Positions 1-64,000 of a stretch of 64,000 nt of DNA are shown in pieces. Origin of the DNA: Clostridia bacterium (GTDB taxonomy: Bacteria; Bacillota; Clostridia; JAAYHZ01); the NCBI GenBank assembly GCA_050950825.1, contig JBMNIH010000004.1, positions 1-64,000 on the forward strand, written 5' to 3'. Position 1 is the first letter of the stretch; every line of letters starts with the position of its first letter. The translations under genes were made by a program, and so were the position numbers. The notes beneath the pieces were generated by a model. It made no database searches, was not told the origin of the DNA, and was given only the letters and a program-made list of their open reading frames with translations.

Positions 1-139
1 TCAACGAATTTCCGGTATCAGAGTAGAACATATCTAGATTAATGGAAATAAAAATGAAGTAAAAGTTAGGAAGACGTTTTTACCGATCCGCGAAAATTGT
101 AAGTAGATATAGAATGTCGGAATTGAATTATTAATGCAA

Positions 140-201
140 TATCTCCATTCTCGGCAGAAGAGTACGGGATATCCTACTGCAAAGAGTATGGAGATTTTTT
201 T
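140..201 (+). terminator. Probable intrinsic terminator of an upstream gene
   Basis: Imperfect stem ATCTCCATTCTCGGCAG / CTGCAAAGAGTATGGAGAT followed by a T-run. Confidence 0.55.
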
Positions 202-214
202 ATTATTAAATCAT

Positions 215-2174
215 GATTCTACTGCAAAAAGATCATTCTTACGCTCGTAAAATTACACTAATGACATAATAAAATCCAATTTATGGTATTCAATTGCGAT
301 AAACGTCCCGAATTTGGGTATCAGCTACCTCGATTCGATATCAAATCGAGGTAGTTTTCATATGTTTTTTACCTTTTGCCTAATAAAAGGCACAATAATC
401 CCTTTTGTTTGTCAAGTTGTTACTTTTGCATATCCGCCTTGCAAAAATTTGATAACTCGTTTTATGTTCTGCGCCATTGATAAGAATCCGCATACAACGG
501 TTGATTTAATCAAACCGCGTACCTTCATATTATTCAGTCCTGTGCGTTTCAACGCCGAAACGGTTCCTTCGATTCCCGCTCTCTTACTAACGTTTTCCTT
601 CCTGCAAGTGGCTATTTCTTCTCGTTTCCTTGCGGTTTCCATTGCTTTTTCACTGATTCTCACCACACTGTTTTTGCTTTGTTGTTTGCTGTAGCATCTG
701 TTAAAATGCTCGCATTGCAGACAAACATCTGTTTCGAAGTATGCCACCAATTGTCCTTTCGCTCTAACCGATCGGAAAGGCATATGACCCGCAGGGCATT
801 TTTCAATCAGTCCCGTTTCTTCTTTTATTTCAAACTCACTCACCGAGATCTTGTCCGACGGCTTCCGTCCGCACATGTCCGTCAAATGAATTTGGACATC
901 ATTGGCTTCCGCGGCTTTGTAAACATCTTCCGAGTGAAAACCTCCGTCTATGTACATGTCGGTACATCCGGTGTTTTCTTTGACCTTTCGGATTCGCCCG
1001 CTTAATATTTCTTTGTCGCTTACAATGTTGGGCTTAACGGCGTAATCGGTAATCAATTGAACTTTGTTGTCTTTCGAGCAGGTTTCCGATACCTCAAGTA
1101 CATAGCCGCTTTGCCCTTTATTGCCTTTCTTTCGATAGGTGGCGTCCTCGTCATAGGCGGATTGAAGCGAATCGGACGAGATTTCTTTGCTCTTCTTCGG
1201 TACAAGGTTACCGTTTTTATCGGTCTCCGACTGTTCTTTGATGAACCGTTCCAGTATGCGAACTTCGTCCGATTCTTTCTTGTCGGGCAGTTCCTTCAAT
1301 ATCTTGAGAGCTTCCGCGCTCATAGACAAAAGCGTCGTAAGCCTGCTTTCCGTATCGACGGTTCTTACCTTATGCAGCATTTCGGTTTTGAAATCCTTTT
1401 CAAGAACCTTCCCCATTGATTCGGGTCTTTGTTCTTTCGGAATGGCTTTTACCCCTTTCTCCAATACGTCGTAAGCCAATGCCAATCGACCCGCTTTCTT
1501 GATATTGCTTACGAACATGGTCGTATCGGTTCTTTGTTCGTCGAGCGAGGTTCCCGTCAGTTTCGCAAAATTCCTCAGTAACTCTATGAATTGACCGAAT
1601 AAGAGGTTTTCGTCCTCGGGATGCTCCGTCAAATATTCATATACTCTTTCCCGAAAGTAATACAGCGTTCTTTCCGATATGTAAATCTCGCCAAGCGTTT
1701 TCCCTCCGACGGCATAAGTCGTTTGATAATCAAGATATAGGGAATCCAAAAGATCTTGATCATTCAGATCTTTCATATACTTGATATATTCCAAAGACAG
1801 CAATATATTCACAGGTGTATTCGGTCTGCCTGTCTTGCTGTACAATTTCGCAAAAGGTTCTTCGTTGATATGGCAAAATACATGTTCATAGAATACAGGT
1901 GCCCAAGATTTTTTAAATCTTTCGCGTGCTTTTTCATGCATCCAATCGAGACTTGAGAAAATCGGTTGTTGTTTATGTGAATCGTTTGCTCTGAACATAA
2001 AATATATCTCCGGAAAATTCAAAATATGGATTAACGAAACATATCTATTTTACCATAAAACCTGCCTCAAGTCTAGTATTTTCAAGTGTTTCGAGGCTTT
2101 TTAATAGCCTTTTATGAAATTTTCTAGGTACATAATATAATGTATAGATTTACTTGAGTTTTTGCAGTAGAATC
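215..2174 (-). mobile_element. Insertion sequence, IS1182/ISNCY-like
   Basis: Perfect 16-bp terminal IRs GATTCTACTGCAAAAA (215-230 and 2159-2174); 6-bp direct repeat AATCAT at 209-214 and 2175-2180; encloses one transposase. Confidence 0.9.
412..1998 (-). CDS. DDE transposase (DUF772 N-terminus, C-terminal DDE_Tnp_1_6-like)
   Basis: GRPNTPV motif, RTDTT, SAYDEDATYRKK, YIDGGF, CPAGH..C..C..C, RAGIEGTVSALKR; ATG at 1998 preferred over the track start 2022. Confidence 0.85.
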   Translation of the reverse strand: MFRANDSHKQQPIFSSLDWMHEKARERFKKSWAPVFYEHVFCHINEEPFAKLYSKTGRPNTPVNILLSLEYIKYMKDLNDQDLLDSLYLDYQTTYAVGGKTLGEIYISERTLYYFRERVYEYLTEHPEDENLLFGQFIELLRNFAKLTGTSLDEQRTDTTMFVSNIKKAGRLALAYDVLEKGVKAIPKEQRPESMGKVLEKDFKTEMLHKVRTVDTESRLTTLLSMSAEALKILKELPDKKESDEVRILERFIKEQSETDKNGNLVPKKSKEISSDSLQSAYDEDATYRKKGNKGQSGYVLEVSETCSKDNKVQLITDYAVKPNIVSDKEILSGRIRKVKENTGCTDMYIDGGFHSEDVYKAAEANDVQIHLTDMCGRKPSDKISVSEFEIKEETGLIEKCPAGHMPFRSVRAKGQLVAYFETDVCLQCEHFNRCYSKQQSKNSVVRISEKAMETARKREEIATCRKENVSKRAGIEGTVSALKRTGLNNMKVRGLIKSTVVCGFLSMAQNIKRVIKFLQGGYAKVTT

Positions 2175-2224
2175 AATCATTTGTTTAGTTACTAAAAATT
2201 TTTTTAGTAATTTTCATTTGTTTA

Positions 2225-2253
2225 TTGACATATTAATTACTAGTGAATATAAT
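2225..2253 (+). promoter_or_regulatory. Consensus sigmaA promoter of the padR operon
   Basis: TTGACA-17nt-TATAAT; inverted repeat AGTAGA..TCTACT just downstream (possible PadR operator). Confidence 0.8.
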
Positions 2254-2302
2254 TCAATAGTAGATAAGGTATTCTACTGATTATTAAAAAGCGAGGGATC
2301 CT

Positions 2303-3365: not shown

Positions 3366-4232
3366 GTGAATACCGTCGTCATTACCGGCGCATCGTCAGG
3401 TATCGGCTTGGAAACTGCAAAAATCTTAACACAAAATGGATTTCATGTAATCGGCGTATCTCGCAGCGAAGAAAATTGTAAACGAGCGAAAGAAAAGATC
3501 CTGTCGGAAAATCCGAATGCACAAATTACCTTTATGCAGGCGGATTTAATGCAGCAGCGAGAAGTGGTTAAAGTAGCCGAAAGTATCACTTTATATCTTA
3601 ACAATTCCGGTAACGGAGAACTCTATGCCCTTATCAATAACGCAGCATGCATACGAAGTTGGTATATGACAACCGAAGAAGGCTATGAACAGCAATTTGC
3701 ACTCAACCATTTGGCAGGCTTTTTATTGACGTATAAGCTTTTGCCGGCTTTGATAAAAGCAAAAGGTTGTGTAATCATGACGGGGAGCGGATCTCACAGA
3801 GGGATTAAAGTGCATTGGGACGATATTATGCTAAACCGAAGGTATAACCCGCTTATAGCCTATAAACAATCGAAGTTATGCAACCTTTTATTTGCCAAAG
3901 GATTAAACGATCGTTATGCCAAAGACGGTATCCGTGCTTATGTCGTAGATCCGGGTTTGGTGAATACCGATATTGGTAACAAGGGAACAGGTGGCCTTGT
4001 CAATTTCGTATGGTCTCTACGTAAAAAACACGGTGTATCGCCCGATGTACCTGCAAAAACCTATGCCTTCTTGTGTGAGCAAAAAGACCGGCAAAACGGA
4101 CTGTATTATTACCTTTGTAAAGAGATAAATTACAGTAAAGAAGTAACAAGCGAAAATGCAAACCGATTGTTTGAATTAAGCGAACGTCTTTGCGGGATCC
4201 GTTATGAAGGGAAGGAGATGGTAGCGGTATGA
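3366..4232 (+). CDS. SDR family oxidoreductase (retinol dehydrogenase-like)
   Basis: TGASSGIG, NNA, YKQSK catalytic motif, PGLVNT. Confidence 0.9.
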   Translation: MNTVVITGASSGIGLETAKILTQNGFHVIGVSRSEENCKRAKEKILSENPNAQITFMQADLMQQREVVKVAESITLYLNNSGNGELYALINNAACIRSWYMTTEEGYEQQFALNHLAGFLLTYKLLPALIKAKGCVIMTGSGSHRGIKVHWDDIMLNRRYNPLIAYKQSKLCNLLFAKGLNDRYAKDGIRAYVVDPGLVNTDIGNKGTGGLVNFVWSLRKKHGVSPDVPAKTYAFLCEQKDRQNGLYYYLCKEINYSKEVTSENANRLFELSERLCGIRYEGKEMVAV

Positions 4233-5020
4233 ACGTTATGATAACCGGAGCGGCAGGAGGTTTAGGTCGTGCACTGGCTAATGAATGCGGAAGGCGTGGA
4301 TATAACCTGTTTTTGACGGATGTAAATGAAGACGGTTTACTTTGTATAAAGCAGGGGCTGGAAAGGCAATTCAATGTTACGGTTGCAACCGCAGCTTGTG
4401 ACCTTACAAATGCAGAAAGCGTGGATCAAATGTTAGCCGTTATCGACAAACATCAAATACGTTTTGATATGCTTTTAAATGTAGCCGGTATGGATTATGA
4501 AGGTGGCTTTATGAGACGTGAAAGAGAAGAACTCGTAAGGATTGTTCTTTTGAACAATGCCGCCACCTTACGAATTACGCATGCTATCTTAAAGCGCAGA
4601 AGAGCAGGCAAGCCTTTTAATATTGTATTCGTATCCAGTCTGGCATCCATGTTTCCAATGCCATTAAAAGCAACCTATGCCGCTTCCAAACGTTTTCTGC
4701 TGGATTTAGCAATTTCATTATGTCAGGAACTAAAAAATGAGAATGTTCATGTACTGACGATATGTCCCGGAGGTATGGTAACGACTCAAAAGGCTATCCA
4801 AGGAATTGAAGCACAAGGCTTCTGGGGAACCGTAACTACAAATCCGTTGGAGTGTGTTGCTCGAAATGCGATTGATCGAGTCTTGGCAGGTAAAAGCATA
4901 TATGTTCCCGGAATACTCAACAGAATTCTTTTTTTCCTCGGTAAAATCATACCTCGCTCATGGATCGCAGCAGTCATCCATTGGCGATGGAGTGGGGTTA
5001 CGGGAGCTACCGAACATTGA
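4229..5020 (+). CDS. SDR family oxidoreductase
   Basis: TGAAGGLG, VSS, YAASK, CPG. Confidence 0.9.
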   Translation: MNVMITGAAGGLGRALANECGRRGYNLFLTDVNEDGLLCIKQGLERQFNVTVATAACDLTNAESVDQMLAVIDKHQIRFDMLLNVAGMDYEGGFMRREREELVRIVLLNNAATLRITHAILKRRRAGKPFNIVFVSSLASMFPMPLKATYAASKRFLLDLAISLCQELKNENVHVLTICPGGMVTTQKAIQGIEAQGFWGTVTTNPLECVARNAIDRVLAGKSIYVPGILNRILFFLGKIIPRSWIAAVIHWRWSGVTGATEH

Positions 5021-15180: not shown

Positions 15181-16038
15181 TTATCTATATTCAATTCCTT
15201 CAAGCTTTCCGTCGAAATATAAAAAATCGCCGTCATCGTAGCGCCGGACTCCTTGAAAGACCGTCGGATGGATATAGCCGTTCTCGTTCTTCTCGTAATC
15301 TTTACAAATTGCCAACCAAGGAACGTATTCGATGTTGCCGTTCGTGCCCATTTCCACGCGGTCATTCGTTTCGAAGGAAATCATTTCATACTTTTCATTG
15401 AATGTAAATATTCCTTCGGCTTTAACGCCGTTATACGATATGATTCCCTTTACATGGTAATCATCGATTTCTTCAAGCGTAATGTATCCTTGTAAAAGGG
15501 AAGTAGGGATAAACAAGCTTTCGGCAAGGTAGGTTACAAGGCACGCTTTGTCCATATCCGTACCCGTTTCATTAAACAATGTTATTGACTTTGCCAAGGT
15601 TCCTTTCATTCCGCCGACACCGTCGGTAAAGGAATCCAAGCCTTCAAAGGGAATTCCCATCATCCTGCTTTCTATTAAAGCATAACGGTCGGGAGCTTTT
15701 ACAAAGTCGTATTGGGTATAATCAATGACAAGCTTCTTTCCTTCCCGTCCTTGCATAAAATCCACATCATAAAAGGGGATTTTCATGTAGGACATCTTGG
15801 GTTTTCCGATATATCCGCAGTGTTCCATGTATTTTTGTACAGGTAAAGGTAAATGTGCAAAATCCTCTTTCGTGAATTTTTCGGAAGATAAATCCGGTTG
15901 CTTAGCGATGGCAGCGTTCACTTTATTATTAAAGCTTTGCTTCACAGGGGAATAGGGAATATTGAAATATACCAAGATGATGCCGATAAGAACTACAATT
16001 GCCAAAAGAATAACCATTTTCTTTCCTCGTTTCTTCAT
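15181..16038 (-). CDS. DUF6544-like exported/membrane-anchored protein
   Basis: N-terminal TM, LPLPVQKY, YLAE..FIP. Confidence 0.75.
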   Translation of the reverse strand: MKKRGKKMVILLAIVVLIGIILVYFNIPYSPVKQSFNNKVNAAIAKQPDLSSEKFTKEDFAHLPLPVQKYMEHCGYIGKPKMSYMKIPFYDVDFMQGREGKKLVIDYTQYDFVKAPDRYALIESRMMGIPFEGLDSFTDGVGGMKGTLAKSITLFNETGTDMDKACLVTYLAESLFIPTSLLQGYITLEEIDDYHVKGIISYNGVKAEGIFTFNEKYEMISFETNDRVEMGTNGNIEYVPWLAICKDYEKNENGYIHPTVFQGVRRYDDGDFLYFDGKLEGIEYR

Positions 16039-23564: not shown

Positions 23565-23590
23565 CGACCGCAATTATATATCTCATCATC

Positions 23591-23856
23591 AAACCGTTGA
23601 ACAAGAGGAGTAAGAATAAGGACTTGCATCCAGAGAGCCGCCGGCGGTGGGAGTGCGGCTGCAAGATTATTCCGAATGGGCTTGTGAGGGAAGCCCGAAA
23701 TCGAAAGAGAGTAGGCGCTTACGGGGATCCTGCCCGTTATCAGGGGGATGCATATGATGGTATGCAACAAGGAGCGGGCGTTATCATGCGCCAATTTGGG
23801 TGGCACCACAGAAGTACGAGCTTTTGTCCCTATTTCGGGACAAAGGCTTTTTTTAT
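23591..23856 (+). ncRNA. T-box riboswitch (Trp), copy 1
   Basis: AGAGA and GGTGG stem I motifs, specifier GAA-TGG (23677-79), T-box AATTTGGGTGGCACC, terminator GCTTTTGTCCC/GGGACAAAGGC plus T-run. Confidence 0.95.
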
Positions 23857-23895
23857 ATCAATAAATCAACGTTTGAAAAGCGAGGTGACGACGAA

Positions 23896-25362
23896 ATGAA
23901 AGGAACCCCGAGTTACGGTGAAGCGGAGCAATTGGCAAAGGAGTACGACATCATACCGATTATGAAGGAAATCTATGCGGACATTACGACTCCCATTGCT
24001 CTTTTACGAAAAATTTTAGGGATTAGCAACAGGTGCTATCTTCTTGAGAGCGTCGAAGGGGGTGAGAAATGGGGCCGATATTCGTTCTTGGGCTTTGATC
24101 CTACCGCCCGTATTGTTTGTAAAGACGGCAAGGTAATCATTGAAGAACAAGAGCAAGAGAAAAAAACGGTATACTCTAAAAAACCTCTCGAAGTGTTAAG
24201 GGCTTATCTTTCGGAATATAGGGCACCGAAGATCGAAGGTTTGCCGCCTTTTGCCGGAGGATATGTAGGTTATTTTGCTTACGGCATGATCGGATATGCG
24301 GAGCCGGTTCTAAAGCTAAGAAGCGGTGAATTCAACGATTTTGACGTCATGCTTTTTGACAAAGTCATTGCCTACGACCACCTAAGGCAAAAGATCGGCA
24401 TCATTGTCAACATGAAAAGCGACCGGCCGGAAGAGAACTACAAAAAAGCGCTTTCCGATATAGATCAAATTGCGAGTATGGTGACGGAGCAAACCGTACT
24501 GCCTAAGGCGAAAATCAAAAGCAAACCTTTCTTTACTTGCAATTTATCAAAGGAAGAGTACAAAAGGATGGTGGAACGGGCAAAAGAATATATCAAACAG
24601 GGAGATATATTCCAAGCGGTTTTGTCCCGACGATTCGAAACGGAATATGCGGACAGTTTGCTGAATGCCTATCGAGTATTACGAACAACCAACCCGTCTC
24701 CTTACATGGTGTTTTTGCAAAATGAAGATCTCCAATTGATCGGCACGTCTCCGGAAACCCTGGTCAGGCTTCAAGACGGAGTTCTCTCCACTTTTCCCAT
24801 AGCAGGATCGAGACCTCGGGGCAAAAACCGGGAGGAAGACAAAGCGTTAGAAAGGGAGCTTCTTGAGGATGAGAAAGAATTGGCGGAACACAACATGCTG
24901 GTGGACCTTGCAAGAAATGATTTGGGCAAGATATCAAAATTTGCGAGCGTACGAGTTGTGAGCTACAAATCCATTCAACGTTATTCAAAGATCATGCACA
25001 TCGTTTCCGAAGTTGAAGGAATCATCAGGGAAGAAAAAGACGCCTTCGATGCCATCGAAGCTCTCTTGCCGGCAGGTACCTTGTCCGGAGCTCCGAAGAT
25101 TCGTGCATGCGAAATTATTGAAGAGCTTGAAAAAGAGCCGAGGGGAATATATGGGGGAGCTATCGGCTATATTGACTTCACCGGCAACATGGACATTTGC
25201 ATTGCCATACGTATGGCGGTAAAGAAGAAGGATAAGGTGTACGTTCAGGCCGGAGGAGGAATTGTGGCGGACAGTATTCCCGAAAAAGAATACGAAGAAT
25301 CGGGGCATAAAGCCAAGGCCGTCACGGAAGCGATACTTTCTGCAGGGGAGGTGAATGAGTAA
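23896..25362 (+). CDS. trpE: Anthranilate synthase component I
   Basis: LLES, GRYSF, GDIFQ, NPSPYM, SPE, AEHNMLVDLARND, PAGTLSGAPK; the track start at 23800 lies inside the T-box. Confidence 0.97.
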   Translation: MKGTPSYGEAEQLAKEYDIIPIMKEIYADITTPIALLRKILGISNRCYLLESVEGGEKWGRYSFLGFDPTARIVCKDGKVIIEEQEQEKKTVYSKKPLEVLRAYLSEYRAPKIEGLPPFAGGYVGYFAYGMIGYAEPVLKLRSGEFNDFDVMLFDKVIAYDHLRQKIGIIVNMKSDRPEENYKKALSDIDQIASMVTEQTVLPKAKIKSKPFFTCNLSKEEYKRMVERAKEYIKQGDIFQAVLSRRFETEYADSLLNAYRVLRTTNPSPYMVFLQNEDLQLIGTSPETLVRLQDGVLSTFPIAGSRPRGKNREEDKALERELLEDEKELAEHNMLVDLARNDLGKISKFASVRVVSYKSIQRYSKIMHIVSEVEGIIREEKDAFDAIEALLPAGTLSGAPKIRACEIIEELEKEPRGIYGGAIGYIDFTGNMDICIAIRMAVKKKDKVYVQAGGGIVADSIPEKEYEESGHKAKAVTEAILSAGEVNE

Positions 25363-25943
25363 TGATATTAATCATTGATAACTACGACAGCTTTACGTAC
25401 AATTTGGTACATCTTGCAGGAGCAATCCGTCCGGATATTCGCGTCATCCGAAACGATGAATGTACTTCCGAACAAGTGGAAGACATGTCTCCTTCCCATA
25501 TTATCTTGTCTCCCGGTCCGGGCTATCCGAAGAACGCCGGCATATGCGAAGAGGTCGTCGACCGGATGAAGGGTAAGGTTCCTATTCTCGGAATCTGCCT
25601 CGGTCATCAAGCCGTATGCGAGGTGTTCGGCGCATCCATTGTTCGAGGGAAGCGCCTTGTACACGGAAAACAAAGCAATATCCATATCGCCGGCGGAAGC
25701 CGTGTATTCAAAAGTCTTCCTCCTATTATTCAAGCGGCCCGATACCATTCTCTCGTTGCGGACCGTATGTCTCTTCCGGATGATCTTTTGGTTATCGCGG
25801 AAGATTTCGAAGGCGAAGTCATGGGCGTAAAGCACAGAGATTACGAAATATACGGCCTTCAATTTCATCCGGAATCCATTTTAACACCGAAAGGTGCCGT
25901 CATTATGGAAAATTTCTTAGGAATAGGAGGTGAAAGGTCATGA
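25362..25943 (+). CDS. trpG: Anthranilate synthase component II
   Basis: IDNYDSFTYNL, SPGPG, GICLGHQ, RYHSL, QFHPES. Confidence 0.96.
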   Translation: MILIIDNYDSFTYNLVHLAGAIRPDIRVIRNDECTSEQVEDMSPSHIILSPGPGYPKNAGICEEVVDRMKGKVPILGICLGHQAVCEVFGASIVRGKRLVHGKQSNIHIAGGSRVFKSLPPIIQAARYHSLVADRMSLPDDLLVIAEDFEGEVMGVKHRDYEIYGLQFHPESILTPKGAVIMENFLGIGGERS

Positions 25944-27794: not shown

Positions 27795-27795
27795 G

Positions 27796-37453: not shown

Positions 37454-37763
37454 TCGATACTTATTTGATTACACGTATTTTGATAGAGCGAGTACAAGCC
37501 GATATAACTATATGAGTGTTTACAAGGAAAATAATAGTTTTTATATCAAGTTAAATTTACAGGTAAGATTTAAATAAAAAAATATGTTTTTTTTACTTTT
37601 ATTTTTAATATATCTGTCATAACCGGTTAAGTAGTTACTCCGTTTCTCAGCCAAAATCTTAGAAGTAAACAATTCTTAACGGAAAAGTCATTATAATGCT
37701 TCTTGGCGAATTCCCAATAAAAATCAATTTTTATATCAGAAGTTTTAGAAAGAGAATTTTATA

Positions 37764-37789
37764 TGTAACATTTGGCATTCTATCTCGTC
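37764..37789 (+). promoter_or_regulatory. Probable autoregulatory ECF promoter
   Basis: TGTAAC-16nt-CGTC upstream of the ECF gene. Confidence 0.6.
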
Positions 37790-37833
37790 TTTATATTTGT
37801 AAACACTCGGCCGAGGAAGAAGGTATTCTTTTT

Positions 37834-38367: not shown

Positions 38368-38381
38368 CGGAGGGATGTGCG

Positions 38382-40085: not shown

Positions 40086-40174
40086 GTCAAGAGCAATGCG
40101 AAACCGAACACCAAGGTTTTAGAGTATTATACTTGCTTCCCTCAAGTGTTTTGATTGATAGGGACGGTTCTCAA

Positions 40175-40222
40175 TTATGCCCGGCAGATGATTCCCGTTG
40201 GGTGATTCTGCCGGGCATAAAA
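40175..40222. terminator. 14-bp inverted repeat after the ECF operon
   Basis: TTATGCCCGGCAGA / TCTGCCGGGCATAA. Confidence 0.6.
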
Positions 40223-40444
40223 ATGCGCTTCTCTCAGGTATATCCGCATTTATATTAATTCACGACCTGCGATTCCGAAATCAATTTGACAGTTCGATTT
40301 TCAGGTGTGATCTGTGATAGCAATTCATCTTATATGAAATTACGGTACCTTGTTTTGCTTTACGAAACCGGGCCGGTAATATATAATTTTTTTATGTACC
40401 GCTTATCTTTCACAGGAAATAAAGATTGAGACGGGGTAGAGGAT

Positions 40445-40925
40445 ATGAAAAGGAAGAATAAACGAATTAGTTTCCTTTTAGCCGTTATTATGGCATTGAT
40501 TTTAATGCTGCCTCTCTTAGTATTTTCAATAAACGGAGATTGTGAAGAAATAACCGTAGAAGAGGCTATGAAAGCGCTTAAAGTAAAAAAATACGCTTTA
40601 TGCCATAGTAACAGATGTTTATTATACCTTCCAAGGGGCGGATGATTTTGTATCGCTGCTTCGTATGGACGCATGGAAAAAAGTGAACTCTTCTTCAAAA
40701 GAAAGCCCTTCCATTTCCATACATTTATTCGAGCAGTACAATATCTACTTATATTACGACGGAATGGCTTCGATCTACTATGGCTATGCCGGCCTTTTGG
40801 AAAACAAGGAAGCCTTTTATTCCGTCCCGGAAGGTACGGCCGAAACCGTTCAAGAATATGTTGCCCGATACGGTACGGTTACCAAACACGGAGTGAATTC
40901 TTCGACATTTGCAAAAGAAGGTTAA
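40445..40925 (+). pseudogene. Exported hypothetical protein, frameshifted
   Basis: Signal/TM ORF at 40445 joins the frame of the 40665 ORF near the A-run at ~40585-40591. Confidence 0.6.
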
Positions 40926-40943
40926 TCTAGCGAGGTTTTAAAC

Positions 40944-41825
40944 ATGGAGATTGTTAAGAGAAGATACCGCCTGCTTTCGGATTTTTCACAGGTTCACGGG
41001 TTTTTAGCGGATATTTACACCTTAGATACTTTAAACAGCTATTTATTACCGCCGTTTTTCGAATACGCCCATACGCATCCGTTCTTCAACCATAAGCTTA
41101 CCCATCGGTTCGGAGTATGGGAGGAAAAGGGCAAAATTATCGGCATTGCGTGCTATGAAATGGATATCGGGGAAAGCTTTCTTGTGACGGATAAGGAACA
41201 TACCTTTCTGTTACCCGAAATGCTTGATCATGCGGAAGAAGAATTGTCGGTTCTTAAAAACGGCAAGCACACCCTTTCCGTGTGGGTAACCGATAAAGAA
41301 ACCGTAAAGATCGATCTGTTGACTCGAAGGGGATATAAAAAGGTGCATAGCGAGCCGATACGCATTTTCTCCTACGATAAGCCTTTTCCTGACGTGAAGC
41401 TTCCCGAAGGCTTTACCGCTATTTCTTTGGATGATGAAAATGATTATAAAAAGATTAACGACTGCTTATGGAAGGGATTTGACCACGGGGACGAGCCGGA
41501 CGACGATATCGACAGTCGGATCCTTATGCAAAGCGGACCTCATTTCCGAAAGGACTTGACAACCGTTATCAAAGCTCCGAACGGAGAATACGCTTGTTTT
41601 GCAGGAATGTGGTTTGATGAAAAAAACAACTACGCTTATCTTGAGCCTTTGGCAACGGTGCCAAAATACCGCCGCCTCGGTCTTGCAGTGTATGCTCTTT
41701 GCGAGGGAATGAAGAAAACAAAAGCCCTCGGCGCAGCCTATTGCTTCGGCGGTGTTCATCCGTTTTATACGGCCATCGGCTTTGAGACCATCGCGAATAG
41801 GGAGATATGGAAAAAGGAACGTTAG
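40944..41825 (+). CDS. GNAT acetyltransferase (two-domain)
   Basis: YLEPLATVPKYRRLGLA..Y.AIGF. Confidence 0.88.
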   Translation: MEIVKRRYRLLSDFSQVHGFLADIYTLDTLNSYLLPPFFEYAHTHPFFNHKLTHRFGVWEEKGKIIGIACYEMDIGESFLVTDKEHTFLLPEMLDHAEEELSVLKNGKHTLSVWVTDKETVKIDLLTRRGYKKVHSEPIRIFSYDKPFPDVKLPEGFTAISLDDENDYKKINDCLWKGFDHGDEPDDDIDSRILMQSGPHFRKDLTTVIKAPNGEYACFAGMWFDEKNNYAYLEPLATVPKYRRLGLAVYALCEGMKKTKALGAAYCFGGVHPFYTAIGFETIANREIWKKER

Positions 41826-41841
41826 ATATACACAAATTAAA

Positions 41842-42888
41842 CTATCCTTTAATCTTCGCCGAAAAGGATATCGGGATTGCTTCGATATCCTTACTTTTGC
41901 CGAATATTTCTTTCAGCATATCGATTTGGTCTTGAGAAAAGTCGTAATCTTTTTCTTTTAAGTATCGCTCCATTTCTCCGGGATCTTTAAGAAAGGTGAG
42001 TGCGAGTCGGTAGTTTCCTTTCTCCAAATCGAGATATGTACTGAAGGTGCACCATTCACAGATATTTTGATATATTTTAATTCCCTTGCTGTCATAGACT
42101 TGAATATCCGTAAGCATGCCTTCGGCATCCAGCCTTACGTTCAGGTTATAGGATTTGCTTTTCTCCACATCGAATGCCATTTCCCATTCCTTTTTATTTT
42201 CCCGGATATTCATCGTAAAGGATGTTTCGAACACGATTTTAGGAAAAAGCAATATCGAAGCGAAAAACACGGCGATACCCAAAAAGAGGACAAGAAATAC
42301 AAGAGCTACGGCTTGCCGTTTCGAAAACCTTGTTTTTTCGACTTTCGAAATGGATTTTAAGTATTCTTTGATTTTCAAAAGCATTCCCTTCTTAAGTGCC
42401 GCGAAGACTATGAGGAGTATGACTAAAAGGGCAATAAAGGATACGAAAAGGGGATGAAGCTTTGAAACATCTAAAAAGCGGGTTACGTCGTCTCCGGCGG
42501 GAGGTGCGGTAAACAAGGATATTACGGGTATTGCAACCCAAGCGATTAGCGATCCGATGATGGAGACGGTAAAGACCGCGTATAGGTAATGATAAACAGT
42601 GCTTTTTATGTTTCGGTTGTAGAATAAAAGAGCAACAGCCAAAACCATTACGGGAAGCAATGCGCCGCCTAAATGAAAAAGAGATTCTCCGAAAGGCGTA
42701 AAGCTTGCTCCCGATGTTCCGACATGAGCATTGAACCCCAATACGAAACGGTCAATTTTCCCGCCGTACATCATGGCAACAAGCGCATGGCCGCCTTCGT
42801 GCAGCAAGGTGTATAAATAGACAAACGATAAAAATATAAAAAGTACAAAAACCGTTATAACCAAGATTCTTTTAGAATTCGTGTTCAT
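41842..42888 (-). CDS. M50 family membrane metallopeptidase with C-terminal soluble domain
   Basis: LLHEGGH within a TM, GG, downstream GDD. Confidence 0.8.
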   Translation of the reverse strand: MNTNSKRILVITVFVLFIFLSFVYLYTLLHEGGHALVAMMYGGKIDRFVLGFNAHVGTSGASFTPFGESLFHLGGALLPVMVLAVALLFYNRNIKSTVYHYLYAVFTVSIIGSLIAWVAIPVISLFTAPPAGDDVTRFLDVSKLHPLFVSFIALLVILLIVFAALKKGMLLKIKEYLKSISKVEKTRFSKRQAVALVFLVLFLGIAVFFASILLFPKIVFETSFTMNIRENKKEWEMAFDVEKSKSYNLNVRLDAEGMLTDIQVYDSKGIKIYQNICEWCTFSTYLDLEKGNYRLALTFLKDPGEMERYLKEKDYDFSQDQIDMLKEIFGKSKDIEAIPISFSAKIKG

Positions 42889-43157
42889 ACAAGCTTCCTT
42901 CGTTTTTTATACCGAACCATTATATCATTATTTAAAAAAATAAAGAACCGATTCATCAATCAAAAATTTACCTAAATACTTGAAAAACAGTTTTTACTTA
43001 AAACTTTTGCATTTAAATGCTAAACTATAGGAGGATATTGCCTCAATCGGTTCATCTTCACAAAGGACCGGTTATTCATCATTTGCATTCTGAGTAGGCG
43101 TAAAGGGATTTTTGTAGACATCCAAAAAATCATGGATGACGTTGAAAGAAGGATGTA

Positions 43158-44274
43158 ATGGGTACATTATTTAATTTTCTTTGGAATAAAGGGAAAAATT
43201 ATTCAGAGCTTGCATCTCGTAACCGGAAGGCTATTGCCGAGTATAACGAAAGACTGCTGTCGGCTATAACGTTGATAGGGGGATTTTTATTGCTGCTCCC
43301 CGCTTTCACTTTATATTTCAGCAACGTTGAAAAAGACATATTGGTGTATTTGATCATTTCTTTTTTTACTCTTTACGCTATGCGTTTTTTCACGGATGTC
43401 TTTCGTGAAAAAGTATTCTCTTATCATGCTATATATTTGTTTTTCTCTTCTTTTTATCCTTACCATTTATCTCAGCGTCGTTATCTCTCCCCACATGCGA
43501 GCGACGGCTTTGCCGGGAGCTTTTTGTATTACGCCCCTTGCCTTCATTGACCGACCGATACGAGTCAATCTGTTTGTTATCTTCCGGTTTATCGTTCATA
43601 CCGTCCTTGCTTTTCTTCTGAAGCCTCTATATGTTCTTGACGATACTGTCAACGGCATATGCTTTACCACGCCGGGCTGCTATATCGGAAACATCATGAT
43701 ATGGGTTCGGCTTGAGGGTTACGAGGCGCAACGGCTATTGACCATTGAAAAAGAAACGGATGTTGTAACCGGCCTTTACAACCGCCGTAAGCTGTTTGAA
43801 ACCTTAGCGGATTTGGAAAAGAAAAACGGTTCCGCGGAGAAACCGTCCGGTGTCCTCATGATCGATATTGATCGTTTCAAAAGCTATAACGACAGCTTCG
43901 GCCATGCCGAAGGTGACAAATGCCTAAGCTATTTGGGCGAAGTATTTCGAACCTTTGCACGGGATTTTCATGTTGATTTTTATCGCTACGGCGGAGAAGA
44001 GTTCGTCGCTTTCATATACGGATGCAGCGAAGAGAAATTGCCTAAAATTGCGGAGAAGCTTCGATTGGCCGTACAGAACGCGGATATTTGCGGTCATTCG
44101 ATTACCGTCAGCATCGGCGCTACATACTGCGGCAACGAGCAGGTTCGAAATTATGAGCATATTATCGATCGAGCGGATCGAGCCGTTTATGCCGCAAAAG
44201 GGGCAGGGCGAAACCGGGTGTGCCAAGAGAAAACAAACGAGATATTCGAGCAAAAAGATCCTTCTTTCTCTTAG
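43158..44274 (+). pseudogene. Membrane GGDEF diguanylate cyclase, frameshifted near 43390
   Basis: D.VTGLYNRR, DIDRFK.YND.FGH..GD, RYGGEEF; TM region split across two frames. Confidence 0.8.
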
Positions 44275-44286
44275 GAAAAGAAGGGT

Positions 44287-45120
44287 TTATGCATAACATC
44301 GATACCAAAGCTCGGCGGCTCCTAATCTTGCCACCACGCCTTTTCGGATTCCTTCTTCCTCGTACTTGCCGACGATGGATCCTTCCAAAATGCCGTTTGC
44401 AAGGTCCAAGTAATCTTTGACGATTCCTTTGTCGATAAGTCCTCCGTCGTGACCGATGGCAAGGTGATCGAACTCGTCCTTTCGAGCCCATATTTTTTCG
44501 ATACTGTCTCTGTAATTTGCAAGGTCTTTTTCCGTACCCTCCGGCTTGTCAATGATAATGATTCCCCTATTCACCGTATCTCCGCTAAAGAGTATGCGGC
44601 CGCTCTTGTCCAAATAGCATACGGACCCAAGGGAGTGTCCGGGTGTATGTATGGCTTCGAGAATGCGTCCTCCTAAATCCCAAGTATCGCCGTCTTTTAA
44701 GGGTATATAGCGAAAGAAAGGATGTTTTTGGTCCGATACCATGGCCTTTAACATTTCGGCATGGCCTTCTCCCGGAAATCGAACCGGAACACGGGTTTCT
44801 ATGTACCATTTAATCATTTCCGCTTTGTAATAATGTTCCCGGGCAATCGCTTCGTCGGCGGGGTGCATATGGCATCTGTCCAATGAAAACATACCGCCGC
44901 AGTGATCCAAATGCCCGTGGGTAAGAAAGACTTCGATCGGAAAATCCGTAATCTCTCTAACTTCATCAAGAACATTCCCGATACCGCATCCGGTATCGAT
45001 CAGTGCCGCCTTGCTATCGCCTGCAATAAGGAAATAATTGTCCAAATAATAGTCGCTGATAAGCCAAGTACGATCTTTCAATAGGGTGACTTCTTTTTTT
45101 ACGGTTTTATTATCTTTCAT
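44287..45120 (-). CDS. MBL-fold metallo-hydrolase
   Basis: THGHLDH, TPGHS, SGD, GH. Confidence 0.9.
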   Translation of the reverse strand: MKDNKTVKKEVTLLKDRTWLISDYYLDNYFLIAGDSKAALIDTGCGIGNVLDEVREITDFPIEVFLTHGHLDHCGGMFSLDRCHMHPADEAIAREHYYKAEMIKWYIETRVPVRFPGEGHAEMLKAMVSDQKHPFFRYIPLKDGDTWDLGGRILEAIHTPGHSLGSVCYLDKSGRILFSGDTVNRGIIIIDKPEGTEKDLANYRDSIEKIWARKDEFDHLAIGHDGGLIDKGIVKDYLDLANGILEGSIVGKYEEEGIRKGVVARLGAAELWYRCYA

Positions 45121-45143
45121 TTTCTTAACCTTTCTTTGAAACG

Positions 45144-45190
45144 GATCCGCCGGTCATTGAGTACAAGGGGTTCTTTAAGACCGGCGGATC
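45144..45190. repeat. Intercistronic 12-bp inverted repeat
   Basis: GATCCGCCGGTC / GACCGGCGGATC between the MFS and MBL genes. Confidence 0.6.
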
Positions 45191-45210
45191 AGGTAGTAAT
45201 GAGTTATGAG

Positions 45211-46644
45211 TTATTTGTCAAAGCTTTCTTCCAATTTTTCGCTTTGCTTGTTTACATACGCACTGATTTCTTTCATCTTCTCATCGTTCATATTGTAGAT
45301 GACGAAGAAGCAAATGAAGATGAGTATGCATCCTATAGTAGGAAGAATGCCTGCCATTGTTTTAATGTTGTTGGCAACGTTTGCGGCCTGCATGGAGCCT
45401 AAGCTTGCATCGTATCCTACCGCATCGAGCAGTACCGCGATCAAGGAGGTGCTCAAGCTGGATATGAAGAATACGAGGAATGTGATGGTTGCATATACGG
45501 TACCGTCGTTTCGGGCTCCCGACAAATAGGCTTGGTAGTCAACGGCATCGGCTATTAAGGACCATACCAACAGGCTGAAGAATCCGGTAAAGAAGGAGGC
45601 TACCAATTGAATGATGATCCATGCACCGGCTGAAACCGGGAATATGGCCAGTACGGCATAGAGGATTGCCGCTATAACAAAGGGGACGGTGATCATCTTT
45701 TTCTTGCCGAAGAGCTTCACCAAGGGTTTTAAGCAAATCATGGCCAAAACCATGGGAACCAAGGTACCCAGACCGATAGCTGCCAATTTTCCGGTATCTT
45801 GGAAATAGGTCATGAATACGTATTGGTTTGTTAGACCTGTTGTTTGCAAGAAGAATTTAGCGACTATGTAAGCGACCACAACGGCGATCATGGGTCTGTT
45901 CTTTGCAAAGGTCTTTATCACTTTCAGGTAATCGATCTTTTCTTTTTCTTCCGCATTTTCTTTGGATATGGACACTACGATTCTTTCTCGGCAGAGCTTA
46001 TGGGTCACGGCTAAACATATAACGGTAAATACCGAAAGAATTAATGCCAAGTGAATAAACCTTCCCGCCACGGGGTTGTTCATGGCGTCAAAAAGGATTA
46101 AAGGAGCAATGGTGGTGGTGATAATGTTGGCGCCTAAGGAGCCTACGCTACGGGCATTGGAAAGCTCCGTTCTTTCCATTTGGTTGGATGTCATGGAATT
46201 GACCATGGCGCCGTAGGGAACGTTGATAAAGGTTCCGACAACACCCCAAATGAAGTATATTCCTACACAGTAGACGATCTTGAACCAATAAGGTGTCGCG
46301 CTGATGTTGGCGAACAGTATAATGGTGGAGATGGCATAGGGTATGGCAAACCACCATATGAAGGGCTTGAACTTTCCGTGCTTGGATCCCGGCCTTAAGT
46401 CCACTACACGCCCGATGAAAGTATCGTTTAGGGCATCCAATGCCTTGCAGATAAAGATGATGATAGAGAAATGGATGGCTTCAATTCCAATAATATTGAC
46501 GCAGAATAACATTAAGTAGGTGTTTACAAGTACTTGTAAACTGTTAAATCCAAGGTCTCCTAAAAAGTATCCGACCTTATCCTTGATACCGAAGGATTCG
46601 GCATTTCGAACGCTATTCACATATGCCGCTTCTGAACTTTTCAT
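45211..46644 (-). CDS. GPH-family (MelB-like) sugar:cation symporter
   Basis: GYFLGDLG, DALND..IG..VD, GKFKPF, NVPYGAM, ER..L, D.VDY. Confidence 0.9.
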   Translation of the reverse strand: MKSSEAAYVNSVRNAESFGIKDKVGYFLGDLGFNSLQVLVNTYLMLFCVNIIGIEAIHFSIIIFICKALDALNDTFIGRVVDLRPGSKHGKFKPFIWWFAIPYAISTIILFANISATPYWFKIVYCVGIYFIWGVVGTFINVPYGAMVNSMTSNQMERTELSNARSVGSLGANIITTTIAPLILFDAMNNPVAGRFIHLALILSVFTVICLAVTHKLCRERIVVSISKENAEEKEKIDYLKVIKTFAKNRPMIAVVVAYIVAKFFLQTTGLTNQYVFMTYFQDTGKLAAIGLGTLVPMVLAMICLKPLVKLFGKKKMITVPFVIAAILYAVLAIFPVSAGAWIIIQLVASFFTGFFSLLVWSLIADAVDYQAYLSGARNDGTVYATITFLVFFISSLSTSLIAVLLDAVGYDASLGSMQAANVANNIKTMAGILPTIGCILIFICFFVIYNMNDEKMKEISAYVNKQSEKLEESFDK

Positions 46645-47036
46645 TTTTTTACTCCTCGTATTATTTATTGTTTTTAGTAAGACAAGCTTTCTTGCTTTGT
46701 CGTTCCCGTAAGGATTCCGCTTGATTTGAAATGTTCATCGGATCTGCCGCCGGTGCGTAAGGTAAAATGCAACTATAGGAGGATCATTTGATGCAATCAT
46801 CGTTCATGCTCCTTAAAAAGGAGGCGCAGCCGTAACCGGTTTGCTATTTTCTCCGCTGTTGTGCTGCGCCGTATTTCAAATTGGTTTCGGTTGACGCTTT
46901 ACATGTCCGATCCGGTTAAACATAGGGGGATGAGGGTGGCACGCACTTACGGCAGTATCCGTATGAAATATTTAATGTTCACTCCGGGCTTCGGAGAATA
47001 GGGGCTTTTAAAACATGATTGTTATTGGTTTTCAAG

Positions 47037-48110
47037 TTAATATGAATCGGCTAAGAATTGGGCATTGCTTTCGAGTATGATCTTAGGAGTAATGTTGTAC
47101 CGCTTTTTAACTTCATCGCCTTTTAGTACGTGGTTAAACAATATCTTTAACGATTCATAACCGATTCGAAACGGATTTTTGTAGATAAGGGCATCGATAA
47201 CTCCGCATTGAAGCATTTTTATGTTTTCATCAAAGACTTCGCTTCCGATTACCGTTATTTTCTCTTGCAAATTCAGCTCATAAACGGCTTTTGCCACGGG
47301 AACGGTGTTTCGTGCCGATGTACAATAAATGCCGACGATACTTTTGTCCTTTTCCAATCGGTCCTTCATATAGTCGTAAAGGAGGTTGTCTTTGTATGAG
47401 ATTTGAATTCTCTCCGTTATCAAATCGCTTCGTTTTCTTTGGATCGTTTCTTCAAAACCGCCGCTGTTTTCATCGATACTAAGACCCGGTTCCTGAACCG
47501 TAATATCGTTGTCCGCGATTAGGACCTTGCCCGTTTTGTGCACCCATTTGCTCATTAGCTCACCGGATAATTTGCCGGAAAGCTCATCGTTAGGCTTTAC
47601 GCAAGTGAGTCTTTCTACATCCGACAAATCCTTGTCTAGCAGCACCATGGGAATGCCTCTTCCCGTAAAACGGTTTAAAAGGTTTATAATGGATCGGGAA
47701 CGTATCGGATAGATCAGCATGCCGTCTACCTTTATATTCCGATCGTTAAAAATGTTCTCCAGCAGGGAGGACAACGCCTCGGTGTTGTAATCATAGAAGT
47801 ATTCGGTAAAAGTGATGTTGAATCGGCTGATTTCTTCTTTGTATTGAAGATAACCGTTGTAAATCGATTCGGCGAAGTACTTCCAGGTTTCGTCTCTTTT
47901 TGGGAAAACAAACAGGATATTCGTTGCCTTTTTACTCAAAGAGGAGGCCGCGTAATTGACGGTATAGCCTAATTCCTTTGATATATCCAAAATGCGTTGA
48001 CGCAGCTCGTCTCCCACACCTTCTTTGTTATTCAACACCCTGTACACCGTTGTAACCGATGTACCTGCCCGCTGCGCTATGTCTTTTAAAGTAGCGTTCT
48101 TTTCTTCCAT
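47037..48110 (-). CDS. LacI family regulator
   Basis: TLKDIAQRAGTSVTTVYRVLN plus sugar-binding domain. Confidence 0.92.
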   Translation of the reverse strand: MEEKNATLKDIAQRAGTSVTTVYRVLNNKEGVGDELRQRILDISKELGYTVNYAASSLSKKATNILFVFPKRDETWKYFAESIYNGYLQYKEEISRFNITFTEYFYDYNTEALSSLLENIFNDRNIKVDGMLIYPIRSRSIINLLNRFTGRGIPMVLLDKDLSDVERLTCVKPNDELSGKLSGELMSKWVHKTGKVLIADNDITVQEPGLSIDENSGGFEETIQRKRSDLITERIQISYKDNLLYDYMKDRLEKDKSIVGIYCTSARNTVPVAKAVYELNLQEKITVIGSEVFDENIKMLQCGVIDALIYKNPFRIGYESLKILFNHVLKGDEVKKRYNITPKIILESNAQFLADSY

Positions 48111-61959: not shown

Positions 61960-62026
61960 TTTCTTTCCTCCGTTTTAACAATATACGGTTAATTCAGTTT
62001 AACACGAATGACCGGGTCTGAAAATA

Positions 62027-62060
62027 TGTTTCATGTCAAAAAAAACGTTTTTCATACAAG
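62027..62060 (+). promoter_or_regulatory. Candidate LytTR binding direct repeats
   Basis: TTTCAT at 62029 and 62050 (21-nt period), upstream of a TATAAC -10-like box. Confidence 0.45.
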
Positions 62061-62493
62061 AAAATTAACAAACACCCCAAAATTCTATATAACTCTCGAA
62101 GGGAAAGACCGTCTCTTTCCTTTAACACAAAGAACATATGAAGCGTAAAAACGATTGTTATCCGGTGTGATGCTTACGAAACTTATTGATTTACAGCCTG
62201 AGAAGATAAGGAGGAAAACGAATTAAAAACCTTAACTTCCGATATCGTGAACAATCCGAAGCTTTGTTTGGGATATCATGCTTCGAAACAATGAAAAAAC
62301 CGAATGATCATTCGAAAGATTGACTTTTCGGATTTCGATACGGACGATGCGAAGTTAATCCTTTCGGCTACCGAGGGAGAAGACTTTAGGGCATATATAA
62401 ATGAATAACTATGATTCGAACCCTGCTGTTCTATATGACAGGTCGGCGAAGCCTTTTGCCGACCTGTCGGAAACTTTTGGAGGTAATAAAAAC

Positions 62494-63009
62494 ATGCTGC
62501 CTACGATCATTGCCATAACCGCTATAGTTGCACTCATTGTCGTTTGGGGTATTTCCGTGCAGCGCAGACTGATCCGTCTTGATGAGAATATTGCAAGCGC
62601 CATGAACCAAATCGGAGTACAGATGTCGAGCCGATTTGATGCCCTTACGGCTCTTTTGGCTTTAACAAACGGCTATGCGGAGCGAGAAATCGAGGCTCTT
62701 TTGAAAACAATTAAGGCCAAAAGAAAATTGATAACGGCAAAATCGACACCGAATGACGTGCTTAGCCAAGAAAAACTGATAACCGAGTCCTTAGATCGGC
62801 TTGCCGAGGTTGCAAAGCGGCATCCCGAGCTAAAAGCAAACCCGAGCTATATCAAAATGCTGGATGCGGTAGAAGCCTTTTCAAATATGGTGCGCACCAG
62901 CTGCCTGATATACAACGAAAGCGTATCAAATCTGAATCGTGAAATCCGGATGTTCCCGAATTCCGCCATTGCAGGCCCCTTAGGATTAAAACCGAGGGAA
63001 TATTTCTAA
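62494..63009 (+). CDS. LemA family protein
   Basis: N-terminal TM, QIGVQ.SSR.D, PELKAN, YN..V..LN..IRMFP; RBS GGAGG. Confidence 0.85.
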   Translation: MLPTIIAITAIVALIVVWGISVQRRLIRLDENIASAMNQIGVQMSSRFDALTALLALTNGYAEREIEALLKTIKAKRKLITAKSTPNDVLSQEKLITESLDRLAEVAKRHPELKANPSYIKMLDAVEAFSNMVRTSCLIYNESVSNLNREIRMFPNSAIAGPLGLKPREYF

Positions 63010-63096
63010 AAACGGATTCCACCTGCTTCGTTTTACGACCGAAGCAGTGAATATATAAACGGACTTGTGTCCTTTAAAAACTATACGGAGGGATTT

Positions 63097-64000
63097 ATGA
63101 AAAGACGATTGCTATGCTTACTGTTAGCTGTCGTTATGCTGGTGGCGTCACTACCTCTCAATGTAGTTGCGGCAAGCATTTACCAAGCACAGTCTAACAG
63201 CCGGCAGACGGAACAACTTCCCTTTAACGATGTGAAAAAGGGAGCCTGGTATTACGATGCAGTGGAGTATGCATACAGGCATAACCTTTTCAACGGAACG
63301 GGAATAAGAACCTTTGCGCCTCTTGGAACCATAACAAGGGCCATGTTTGTAACCGTTTTAGGCAGAATGGTAGGGGTAGACATATCCAAGTATCAAAACA
63401 AATCGACATTCTCGGATGTAGATAACGACGCTTATTATGCCCCCTATGTAGCGTGGGCCGTAGAAAACGGAATTACAACCGGAACAGGCAACGGATTGTT
63501 TTCTCCCGATGAACCGGTAAACCGCGAACAGATGGCGGTTTTTATGGTTCGCCTTTTTGAAGCGTTGGGAATTTCCTTGTCTGAAACGGATGAAACCGAT
63601 TTGCCGAAGGATTTTGACAGCATTTCGGATTATGCCAAGGAAGCGGTCTTAAAGCTGTGGAATGGCGGGATGTTCCAAGGAGACAGCAAGGGTAGATTTA
63701 ATCCGAAGAATAACGCCACACGAGCGGAATGCGCGTCATTCCTTATGCGAATCGACGAGTTGTTGGTTCAAATCGGTTACAAAAAATACGTAACGGAAGA
63801 AAAGCAGGAAGAAAAACCCGTAGTAATTATCGGCGGTGGCGGCACGAATCCCGGACAGGAACCCGGCGAGGAGGGCCCGGAGAAGAAACCTATACCGTTA
63901 CCTTCAAGGACGGCAGCCGTGTCGTAGACACCCTTACCGCCGTGAAGGACCAACCCTTAGGTACCGTTCCCGGGGCGGATAAAACCGCAAAGCAAAACGC
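63097..64000 (+). pseudogene. Secreted SLH-domain surface protein, frameshift at ~63874, continues past the window edge
   Basis: Signal peptide, three SLH repeats (TRA, NREQ, TRAE), then YTVTFKDG (B-repeat-like) open in another frame. Confidence 0.75.

Follow-up and report, generated by a model that had tools for sequence, protein, structure and literature searches.

Why are the tetranucleotide CTGG and its complement CCAG so scarce, and CCGG so abundant, in a stretch of 64,000 nucleotides from a Clostridia bacterium? The stretch, hereafter the window, covers positions 1 to 64,000 of contig JBMNIH010000004.1 (G000:C4:1-64000), and the host genome (G000) comprises 3.55 Mb in 11 contigs, with 43.8% G+C and 97.1% completeness. 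Twenty sequencing runs, from 17 studies on metagenomes of bioreactors, digesters and sludge, contain at least 84% of the words sampled from 9.9 kb of it. An original prediction, made from the letters of the window, held that a CCGG-specific C5-methylase and a mutator resembling very-short-patch (VSP) repair convert CTGG and CCAG to CCGG and overwrite conserved codons on the way. The skew is real, and the observation behind this prediction is confirmed in part, as its interpretation is supported in part. A long-standing VSP-like bias that resolves T:G to C:G with the specificity of HpaII (CCGG) probably acts in the family of uncultured Clostridia to which this bacterium belongs.

Word usage in the window and the genome

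The following features of the window are considered first.

1–64000, no strand: skew region, with 306 CCGG versus 97 CTGG plus CCAG (61 and 36)
30001–31185, + strand: trpB, with 8 CCGG, 3 CTGG and 0 CCAG

Dinucleotide-preserving shuffles of the window contain 276.5 ± 14.3 CTGG/CCAG words, and 0/100 shuffles were as low as the observed 97. In the called genes of the window, the synonymous class NCT|GGN of CTGG (the bar marks the codon boundary) was observed 0 times, with 41.6 occurrences expected. The hand count given for trpB in the original prediction was exact: all three CTGG are Leu codons (CTG|G), and Gln after a C is CAA in 4/4 cases.

The genome as a whole holds 21108 CCGG sites, which is 2.6 times the zero-order expectation and the top of all 256 words, and 0.85 of the maximal-order Markov expectation. 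CTGG/CCAG stands at 0.39 of the zero-order and 0.65 of the Markov expectation, third lowest after CTAG and CGCG. By Markov expectation, which the prediction had named as a test, the skew is therefore half visible, with CTGG/CCAG depleted but CCGG not enriched. CCGG falls short of the maximal-order figure because the trinucleotides CCG and CGG are in excess too. Plain Markov ratios thus understate the effect, so they were replaced by a null model that fixes amino-acid pairs and codon usage: in 2660 genes derived from open reading frames (ORFs), each amino acid picks its codons independently of the neighbours, and every 4-mer is evaluated per frame.

Under this null model NCT|GGN was observed 101 times versus 2635 expected, a ratio of 0.038 and the lowest of 738 frame-specific 4-mers. 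The class is depleted alike after C, G, A and T (0.02–0.07). The other frames of CTGG and CCAG have observed/expected ratios of 0.21 (CCA|G), 0.37 (NCC|AGN), 0.51 (C|CAG) and 0.53 (C|TGG), and Leu CTG|G, in which conversion would produce Pro, has 0.84. The ratios of CCGG in its three codon frames are 1.28, 1.43 and 1.12. The coding strand is poor in CTGG and CCAG alike, and in the 527 kb that lie beyond the called genes CTGG/CCAG has a lower Markov ratio (0.62) than any other 4-mer, with CCGG at 3.26 times the zero-order expectation. The skew is therefore a property of the DNA and not of translation.

Two further palindromes, GGCC and CGCG, are low in this genome, and CTAG is extremely rare (1130 sites, 0.084 of the zero-order expectation).

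The skew in related genomes

The genome collection contains a genus mate (G001), a further family member (G002) and 28 genomes from other families of the class. Among named organisms, the closest proteins come from uncultured Clostridiales; for GlgC, Herbinix and Lachnospiraceae reach about 70%. Words were counted in samples of 669 kb of G001, 900 kb of G002 and 51–80 kb of G021, G019 and G026; the genomes are interrelated.

G001 has a CTGG f2 value of 0.12, CCA|G of 0.24 and CCGG f2 of 1.95. The values in G002 are 0.04 for CTGG f2, 0.08 for CCA|G, 2.05 for CCGG f2 and 2.26 for C|CGG. The control words CTGA, CTGC and CTGT have f2 values of 0.81–1.25 in these two genomes. The skew is a family trait, common to G000, G001 and G002. 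It is also seen in G013 and G014, which belong to other families and carry the type of methylase described below together with vsr: CTGG f2 is 0.12 and 0.18, and CCGG f2 1.89 and 1.77, respectively. In genomes without a full-length close homologue of this methylase CTGG f2 is 1.50 (G021, with CCGG f2 of 0.12), 0.56 (G019) and 0.42 (G026). Hence CTGG f2 is at most 0.18 in 5/5 sampled genomes with the methylase type and at least 0.42 in 3/3 without a full-length close homologue.

The direction of the exchange follows from the balance of codon classes. The deficit of NCT|GG and the gain of NCC|GG amount to −2534 and +2677 in G000, −610 and +752 in G001, and −1136 and +1032 in G002. NCA|GG and NCG|GG stay at 0.88–1.22 across the three genomes (0.91 and 1.02 in G000). 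The loss of NCT|GG is made up by NCC|GG alone, and the exchange is therefore specific to T and C.

Amino-acid footprint

DNA-level alignment of 20 kb of the window with G001 and G002 yielded only few matching stretches, of 65–80%. This is too sparse to polarise a nucleotide spectrum, so protein-guided codon columns were used instead. They come from reciprocal-best orthologue pairs, 261 with G001 (median identity 75%) and 361 with G002 (69%), and were limited to columns with no nearby gaps and local identity of at least 0.6.

Trp stands opposite Arg encoded by C|CGG in 13/323 columns, each of the 13 at a different site. When the base before CGG is A, G or T the count is 2/721 (p=1.1e-5), and Arg codons other than C|CGG, taken together, give 13/8156 (p=1.9e-12). 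A Gln partner is found in 38/323 versus 44/721 columns (p=0.0026), and Arg is kept in the relatives in 136/323 versus 478/721. When the relatives are taken as the focus, the Trp signal appears again (5/171 versus 1/408, p=0.0098). There is no excess of Leu to Pro in the orthologue columns (15/1569 versus 11/1411), and Ser or Arg(AGN) to Gly after CC shows no excess in G000 and a mild one in the relatives. The genome-wide overwriting of conserved codons that had been predicted is accordingly seen for Trp to Arg and Gln to Arg, but not for Leu to Pro.

The direction of these changes must be polarised, because deamination of methylated CCGG would turn Arg into Trp at such sites too. This was possible in three cases, each with Trp as the earlier residue. 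Residue 159 of GlgC is Trp in 109/120 homologues and Arg only in this genome. The TrpF site at 28221, where a change from FDW to FDR had been proposed, is Trp in 9/11 relatives and His in 2, which supports the proposal. In one column with three genomes, G000 and G002 have Trp and G001 has C|CGG. The prediction of a directional drive, with T to C and A to G changes within CTGG and CCAG that reach amino acids, is thus borne out.

The mark of the drive on proteins is real but modest, most Trp and nearly all Leu being kept by selection. Scaling of the 4% to 2059 C|CGG codons suggests, by extrapolation, about 80 Trp-to-Arg changes among about 10,000 Trp codons.

Single sites proposed for the window concern the following genes, among others.

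27724–28407, + strand: trpF (PRAI), codon CGG at 28222–28224 after C, CCGG at 28221–28224, FDR
15181–16038, − strand: DUF6544/DUF6920 protein, Arg265 coded within CCGG at 15244–15247
36181–37401, + strand: IS256-family transposase, one of 7 near-identical copies, TCC GGG with CCGG at 36590–36593, Gly138

CCGG is present at all 11/11 coordinates that had been named. The sampled parts of G001 and G002 hold no orthologue columns for the listed genes of the window, and a search of 31 relatives gave usable homologues for 2/3 listed-site proteins. A Trp-to-Arg change at 15244 is plausible in view of Trp in the G001 orthologue, but the G026 orthologue has Lys; the one proposed at 7054 finds no support, with Trp in 0/7 homologues. 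For a third, at 51602, none of the 31 genomes searched has a relative of the gene. The supposed Gln to Arg at 61266 was a misreading, as the site is ACC|GGT and encodes Thr-Gly. Among the proposed Leu-to-Pro sites, 33960 is favoured by an internal repeat that has Leu where this copy has Pro, a weak point, and 43513 and 43672 fall outside the Pfam domain of a GGDEF protein.

The IS256 transposase had been cited as a strong case, with a conserved VSRI turned into VSGI. Residue 138 is Gly in 6 of the genome copies and Arg, with CCAG, in 1 (C4:454532-455749); the seven copies show just one further amino-acid difference. The same variation was found in other samples. Contigs of four sequencing runs from four other studies (X5, X9, X14 and X20; platforms not on record) were aligned to positions 28100–48099. 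At position 36592 run X9 has A at full depth (66.6 of 66.6), giving AGG for Arg and CCAG, and X5, X14 and X20 read G. Three paralogous IS256-type families of the genome have Ala, Asp or Glu at that position, so Arg is not a conserved residue there. The Gly/Arg variation is therefore real, but the claim of a conserved Arg fails, and either residue may be the older one.

Methylase, vsr and a relic of the endonuclease

The genome has a single C5-methylase gene (the only PF00145 match), located outside the window at G000:C10:25427-26398 and encoding 335 amino acids. Its domain is full-length (PF00145 positions 1–323 of 324, 329.5 bits; TIGR00675, 335 bits). The catalytic half is nearest to M.HhaI in the Protein Data Bank, a match uninformative on specificity. 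More telling are the genomic neighbours of its homologues, counted within 4 kb at the best 80 homologue-bearing public loci from species genomes, where the methylases are 72–79% identical to it over residues 1–334. An R.HpaII-like gene is present at 72 of these loci, vsr at 63, both at 58 and neither at 3. Several homologues (77% identity) are fused to RE_HpaII (PF09561) or continue into it, and in one the partner is Vsr (PF03852). Since an R.HpaII-like gene stands beside 72/80 close homologues, we read the enzyme as an HpaII-type methylase; a C5-methylase for CCGG, as had been predicted, is thus very probably present in the genome, judging by this kinship. Public homologues of 72–80% identity are spread over very diverse taxa. 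In the collection, the methylase has orthologues in G001 (81% identity), G002 (61%), and G013 and G014 (47%). Upstream (5') of the methylase, at G000 C10:23927-25200 (positions 1–1266 of locus L032), lie a putative GNAT acetyltransferase-like ORF and an ORF that may resemble DUF1848.

A trace of the cognate endonuclease lies in the window itself.

37452–37571, + strand: relic of an HpaII-type endonuclease, last 40 of 359 profile positions (320–359), 45.5 bits with a cut-off of 25

The relic directly adjoins the IS256 copy on its right side, and the genome has no second one. Among the best matches shown, it is 52–60% identical to the C-termini of R.HpaII-like genes that stand beside methylase homologues, and tblastn gave 69 matches among 81 loci. 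No intact gene of the R.HpaII family was found in the genome, where only the 40-codon relic matches, and no further remnant of the endonuclease or of vsr was found in the window. An exact 29-base search for the relic in metagenome contigs of JGI gave no match. The relic indicates that the lineage once carried the endonuclease, most of whose gene would have been removed by an event associated with IS256. Its usual neighbours, the methylase gene and vsr, may have gone along with it.

Origin of the skew

The genome shows a footprint of VSP type, in which the word with T is depleted, the word of the methylase site is enriched and the exchange is specific for T to C. We consider it probable that a repair bias of this kind is the cause. 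T:G mismatches in the context C-T-G-G / C-C-G-G would be resolved to C:G whatever their origin, so that CTGG and CCAG steadily give way to CCGG, with the reverse change suppressed. Free positions, synonymous or non-coding, would become nearly fully converted, and constrained ones such as Leu CTG|G would resist. The same pressure would fix some changes of Trp (TGG) and Gln (CAG) to Arg (CGG) after C, including those at the conserved sites of TrpF and GlgC. Repair of this kind accounts for the direction of the exchange, its strand symmetry, the match with the methylase site, the persistence in the family and the Trp and Gln to Arg footprint. The agent would be a T:G-specific nuclease. Its gene vsr may have been lost recently with the endonuclease in the deletion associated with IS256, may lie in the unassembled 3% of the genome, or may be replaced in function by another enzyme.

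Several findings weigh against this explanation. A Vsr-type gene, for which the original prediction had proposed a search, was not found in the 97%-complete G000, either with the profiles of vsr (PF03852), DUF559 and MTES_1575 or by tblastn with the Vsr proteins of G002, G013 and G014 (best E 0.094, unrelated genes), and vsr was not found in G001 either. The methylase neighbourhood differs between G000, G001 and G002 and no partner gene emerged, so the methylase may have moved or been acquired repeatedly. When pooled, the flanks at the 80 cassette loci have a CTGG f2 of only 0.60 and a CCGG f2 of 1.31; possession of a cassette of vsr, methylase and endonuclease (V-M-R), often recent, is therefore insufficient by itself. 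A strict CTGG rule does not suffice for G000, which avoids T|GG after A, G or T too (0.17–0.23). Recent changes show no excess, in samples too small to decide: CCGG/CCAG accounts for 1/40 single-nucleotide polymorphisms listed (of 71) in 20 kb of four runs, and CTGG to CCGG for 1/47 singleton differences in five repeat families (IS256 left out). Finally, synonymous sites are presumably saturated at 69–75% protein identity, so the skew must be maintained separately in each lineage, including G000 and G001 where vsr was not found, and a loss of vsr in the ancestor of the genus would not fit.

Recent independent losses of vsr are an option here, the relic in G000 being fresh-looking and beside a recently active insertion sequence (IS). 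In other genomes vsr is either part of a full vsr-methylase-endonuclease row on one contig (G013) or apart from the methylase (G014 and G002). A weak tblastn match of Vsr on contig C6 was rejected, as it falls in transporter and signal-peptidase genes.

A bolder form of the VSP-like explanation can be put forward tentatively. A T:G-to-C:G activity other than the canonical Vsr might keep CTGG and CCAG near zero in genomes with a solitary HpaII-type methylase, loading Trp and Gln codons, including residues in catalytic domains of core enzymes. A nuclease or glycosylase not yet recognised as such would be responsible, and the process would be a tetranucleotide-specific bacterial analogue of biased gene conversion.

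Alternatively, a context-specific bias of mutation or repair could act with neither Vsr nor methylation, the HpaII-type methylase being a bystander. A thymine-DNA glycosylase of another family, or a quirk of a polymerase or of mismatch repair, are possible agents. Such a bias agrees with the strong skew of G000 and G001 though vsr was not found there, and with a shift from T|GG to C|GG that is wider in G000 than in G001 and G002: T-ending codons are avoided about 5-fold before Gly GGN, and CCA makes up only 3% of Pro codons, which is outside the strict CTGG rule. We nevertheless hold it unlikely. The genomes with a strong skew have an HpaII-type methylase in 5/5 cases and vsr in 3/5, the skew is weak or inverse in the three that lack a full-length close homologue (in a set of only eight related genomes), and the favoured word is exactly the site of the methylase.

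Selection could instead purge CTGG and CCAG, for example as targets of restriction or defence, with codons falling back on the tolerated CCGG and no conversion pump at work. These words are among the lowest by Markov ratio, the most depleted 5-mer of G000 is CCWGG (Markov ratio 0.53, 1063 sites), as is usual for restriction avoidance, and vsr was not found in G000. However, an equilibrium loss should spread over C, A and G by usage, and C alone gains in three genomes. A silent change in the preceding codon could relieve C|TGG, yet TrpF and GlgC had a conserved Trp replaced by Arg, and Trp partners are enriched 15–26 times at C|CGG. The depletion also extends beyond CCWGG, since NCT|GG is reduced after all four bases, and no enzyme is known to recognise the bare non-palindromic CCAG. 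Purging selection seems to us less likely still than a bystander methylase. Avoidance of CCWGG as the cause was dropped, as just 13% of CTGG words are CCTGG and the depletion is equal across the four NCT|GG classes.

A translational preference, by which the ribosome avoids the codon pairs NCT-GGN and CCA-GNN, would place the strongest single effect at the codon junction, where it is found, and could extend to T|GG after any base as in G000. It would leave untouched the reverse-complement word, which is depleted too and in all three frames, and the DNA outside called genes, where the ranking is the same; an amino-acid footprint is not expected from it. This explanation is very improbable.

The prediction had itself mentioned a basecalling artefact at a modified motif as an alternative. 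Contigs from the other studies agree with the window at 28221 in X9 (28100–28747, no differences) and X14 (28117–29702, three differences, all elsewhere), at 33960 in X5, X9 and X20, at 43513 in X5 and X20, and at 43672 in X5 (with unlisted differences in other runs). Although seven near-identical IS copies inside contigs suggest long reads, and rRNA-operon-sized repeat copies of 5.3 kb differ by many small gaps, an artefact of assembly or basecalling in a long-read assembly is rejected as having next to no probability, given that the independent contigs agree wherever they cover 28221, 33960 and 43513 and, in one run, at 43672, that the sole difference, at 36592, is a clean population difference, and that the fragmented assemblies G001 (310 contigs) and G002 (350 contigs) have the same skew. 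The copies of the 5.3 kb repeat (C2:71482-76809, C10:127664-132987, C7:81016-86323 and C1:55415-60666) differ by 1–13 gap openings plus substitutions, which may be consensus errors of long reads.

Candidate recent arrivals and the trp region

The original prediction also suggested that the ratio of CCGG to the depleted words could date gene acquisition. One gene of the window was named as still holding several of these words.

4229–5020, + strand: SDR gene, with 6 CTGG/CCAG and 4 CCGG, the richest gene of the window

The SDR gene does retain CTGG/CCAG (6 versus 4 CCGG), but the excess is weak, with an uncorrected p of 0.03 that is not significant after correction. A leader of the IS256 element had been named as well; three such words lie to the left of IS256, at 35847–35899, and none within 35922–36180. 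In the whole genome 12/2046 testable genes have an excess of CTGG/CCAG at p<1e-4. The genes rich in these words form clusters at C7:211-226 kb, C3:13-28 kb and C1:96-108 kb, and a further one lies at C8:167-168 kb. Low G+C (32–36%) is seen in several of these genes, and IS copies rank close behind (p about 3e-4). Such clusters fit unconverted recent arrivals and are candidate islands. Having an orthologue in the sampled relatives makes no difference to a gene's ratio (0.272, versus 0.279 for other genes), which can therefore serve as a coarse clock at most. It flags some likely recent arrivals, namely islands of odd G+C and IS copies, but does not date acquisition finely.

The trp region of the window (23588–31954) contains two T-box leaders (23588–23834 and 29653–29899) and two trpA-like genes (28654–29469 and 31178–31954). 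The start of trpB is repeated in a short segment at 28395–28457. Run X9 has structural variants in this region, with joints 28214/28840 and 29924/28100.

Implications and comparison with known systems

If a repair enzyme of a mobile cassette does rewrite word usage 25-fold and turn Trp into Arg, repair bias would shape bacterial protein evolution alongside mutation and selection. Codon-pair and k-mer signatures, which are used in binning, host prediction and the detection of horizontal transfer, would be strongly imprinted by the history of restriction-modification, and the ratio of CTGG/CCAG to CCGG may mark recently arrived DNA in such lineages. That the skew is kept where vsr was not found suggests either a repair activity yet to be discovered or a very recent, datable loss.

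The footprint of Escherichia coli Dcm/Vsr VSP repair on oligonucleotide counts was reportedly described by Bhagwat and McClelland and by Merkl et al., both in 1992. As in that system, T:G-to-C:G repair tied to the site of a C5-methylase would here enrich the methylated word and deplete its T-containing neighbour. The present case differs from it in the site, which is CCGG and not CCWGG, in a depletion of about 25-fold at free sites, in the Trp and Gln to Arg footprint, and in that vsr was not found. Eukaryotic GC-biased gene conversion is likewise a repair bias that mimics directional selection and can fix mildly harmful protein changes; it acts on recombination heteroduplexes with no four-base context, unlike the bias described here, which is confined to one tetranucleotide. 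HpaII-type V-M-R cassettes are a further close system, as the methylase is 72–79% identical to those of 80 loci, 58 of which have both vsr and an R.HpaII-like gene. Here, however, the methylase is solitary and on another contig than the relic, and vsr was not found.

A full-text search of the literature library used gave no description of a loss of CTGG/CCAG with a gain of CCGG, or of its codon-level consequences; the supplements of PMC4687349 may hold word tables per genome. In Caulobacter, the solitary methylase ScmA, which methylates the first C of the 8-mer YGCCGGCR, is functionally tied to the Vsr-like VsrA (PMC12907096). Both cases have a solitary C5-methylase for a motif that contains CCGG, and in Caulobacter a Vsr-like nuclease acts on T:G. 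A Vsr-like gene is present there, unlike here, and no genome-wide word skew is reported in the parts of that paper available to us. Helicobacter genomes with CCGG restriction-modification systems have over-represented CCGG, for which the authors had no biological explanation (Rusinov et al. 2015, PMC4687349), so that CCGG is in excess despite an own CCGG system, as in the genome studied here. The organism and the strength of the effect differ, and the accessible part of that work reports no depletion of CTGG/CCAG or codon-level analysis. If the VSP-like repair bias proposed for the present family is true, the CCGG excess of Helicobacter gains a testable explanation.

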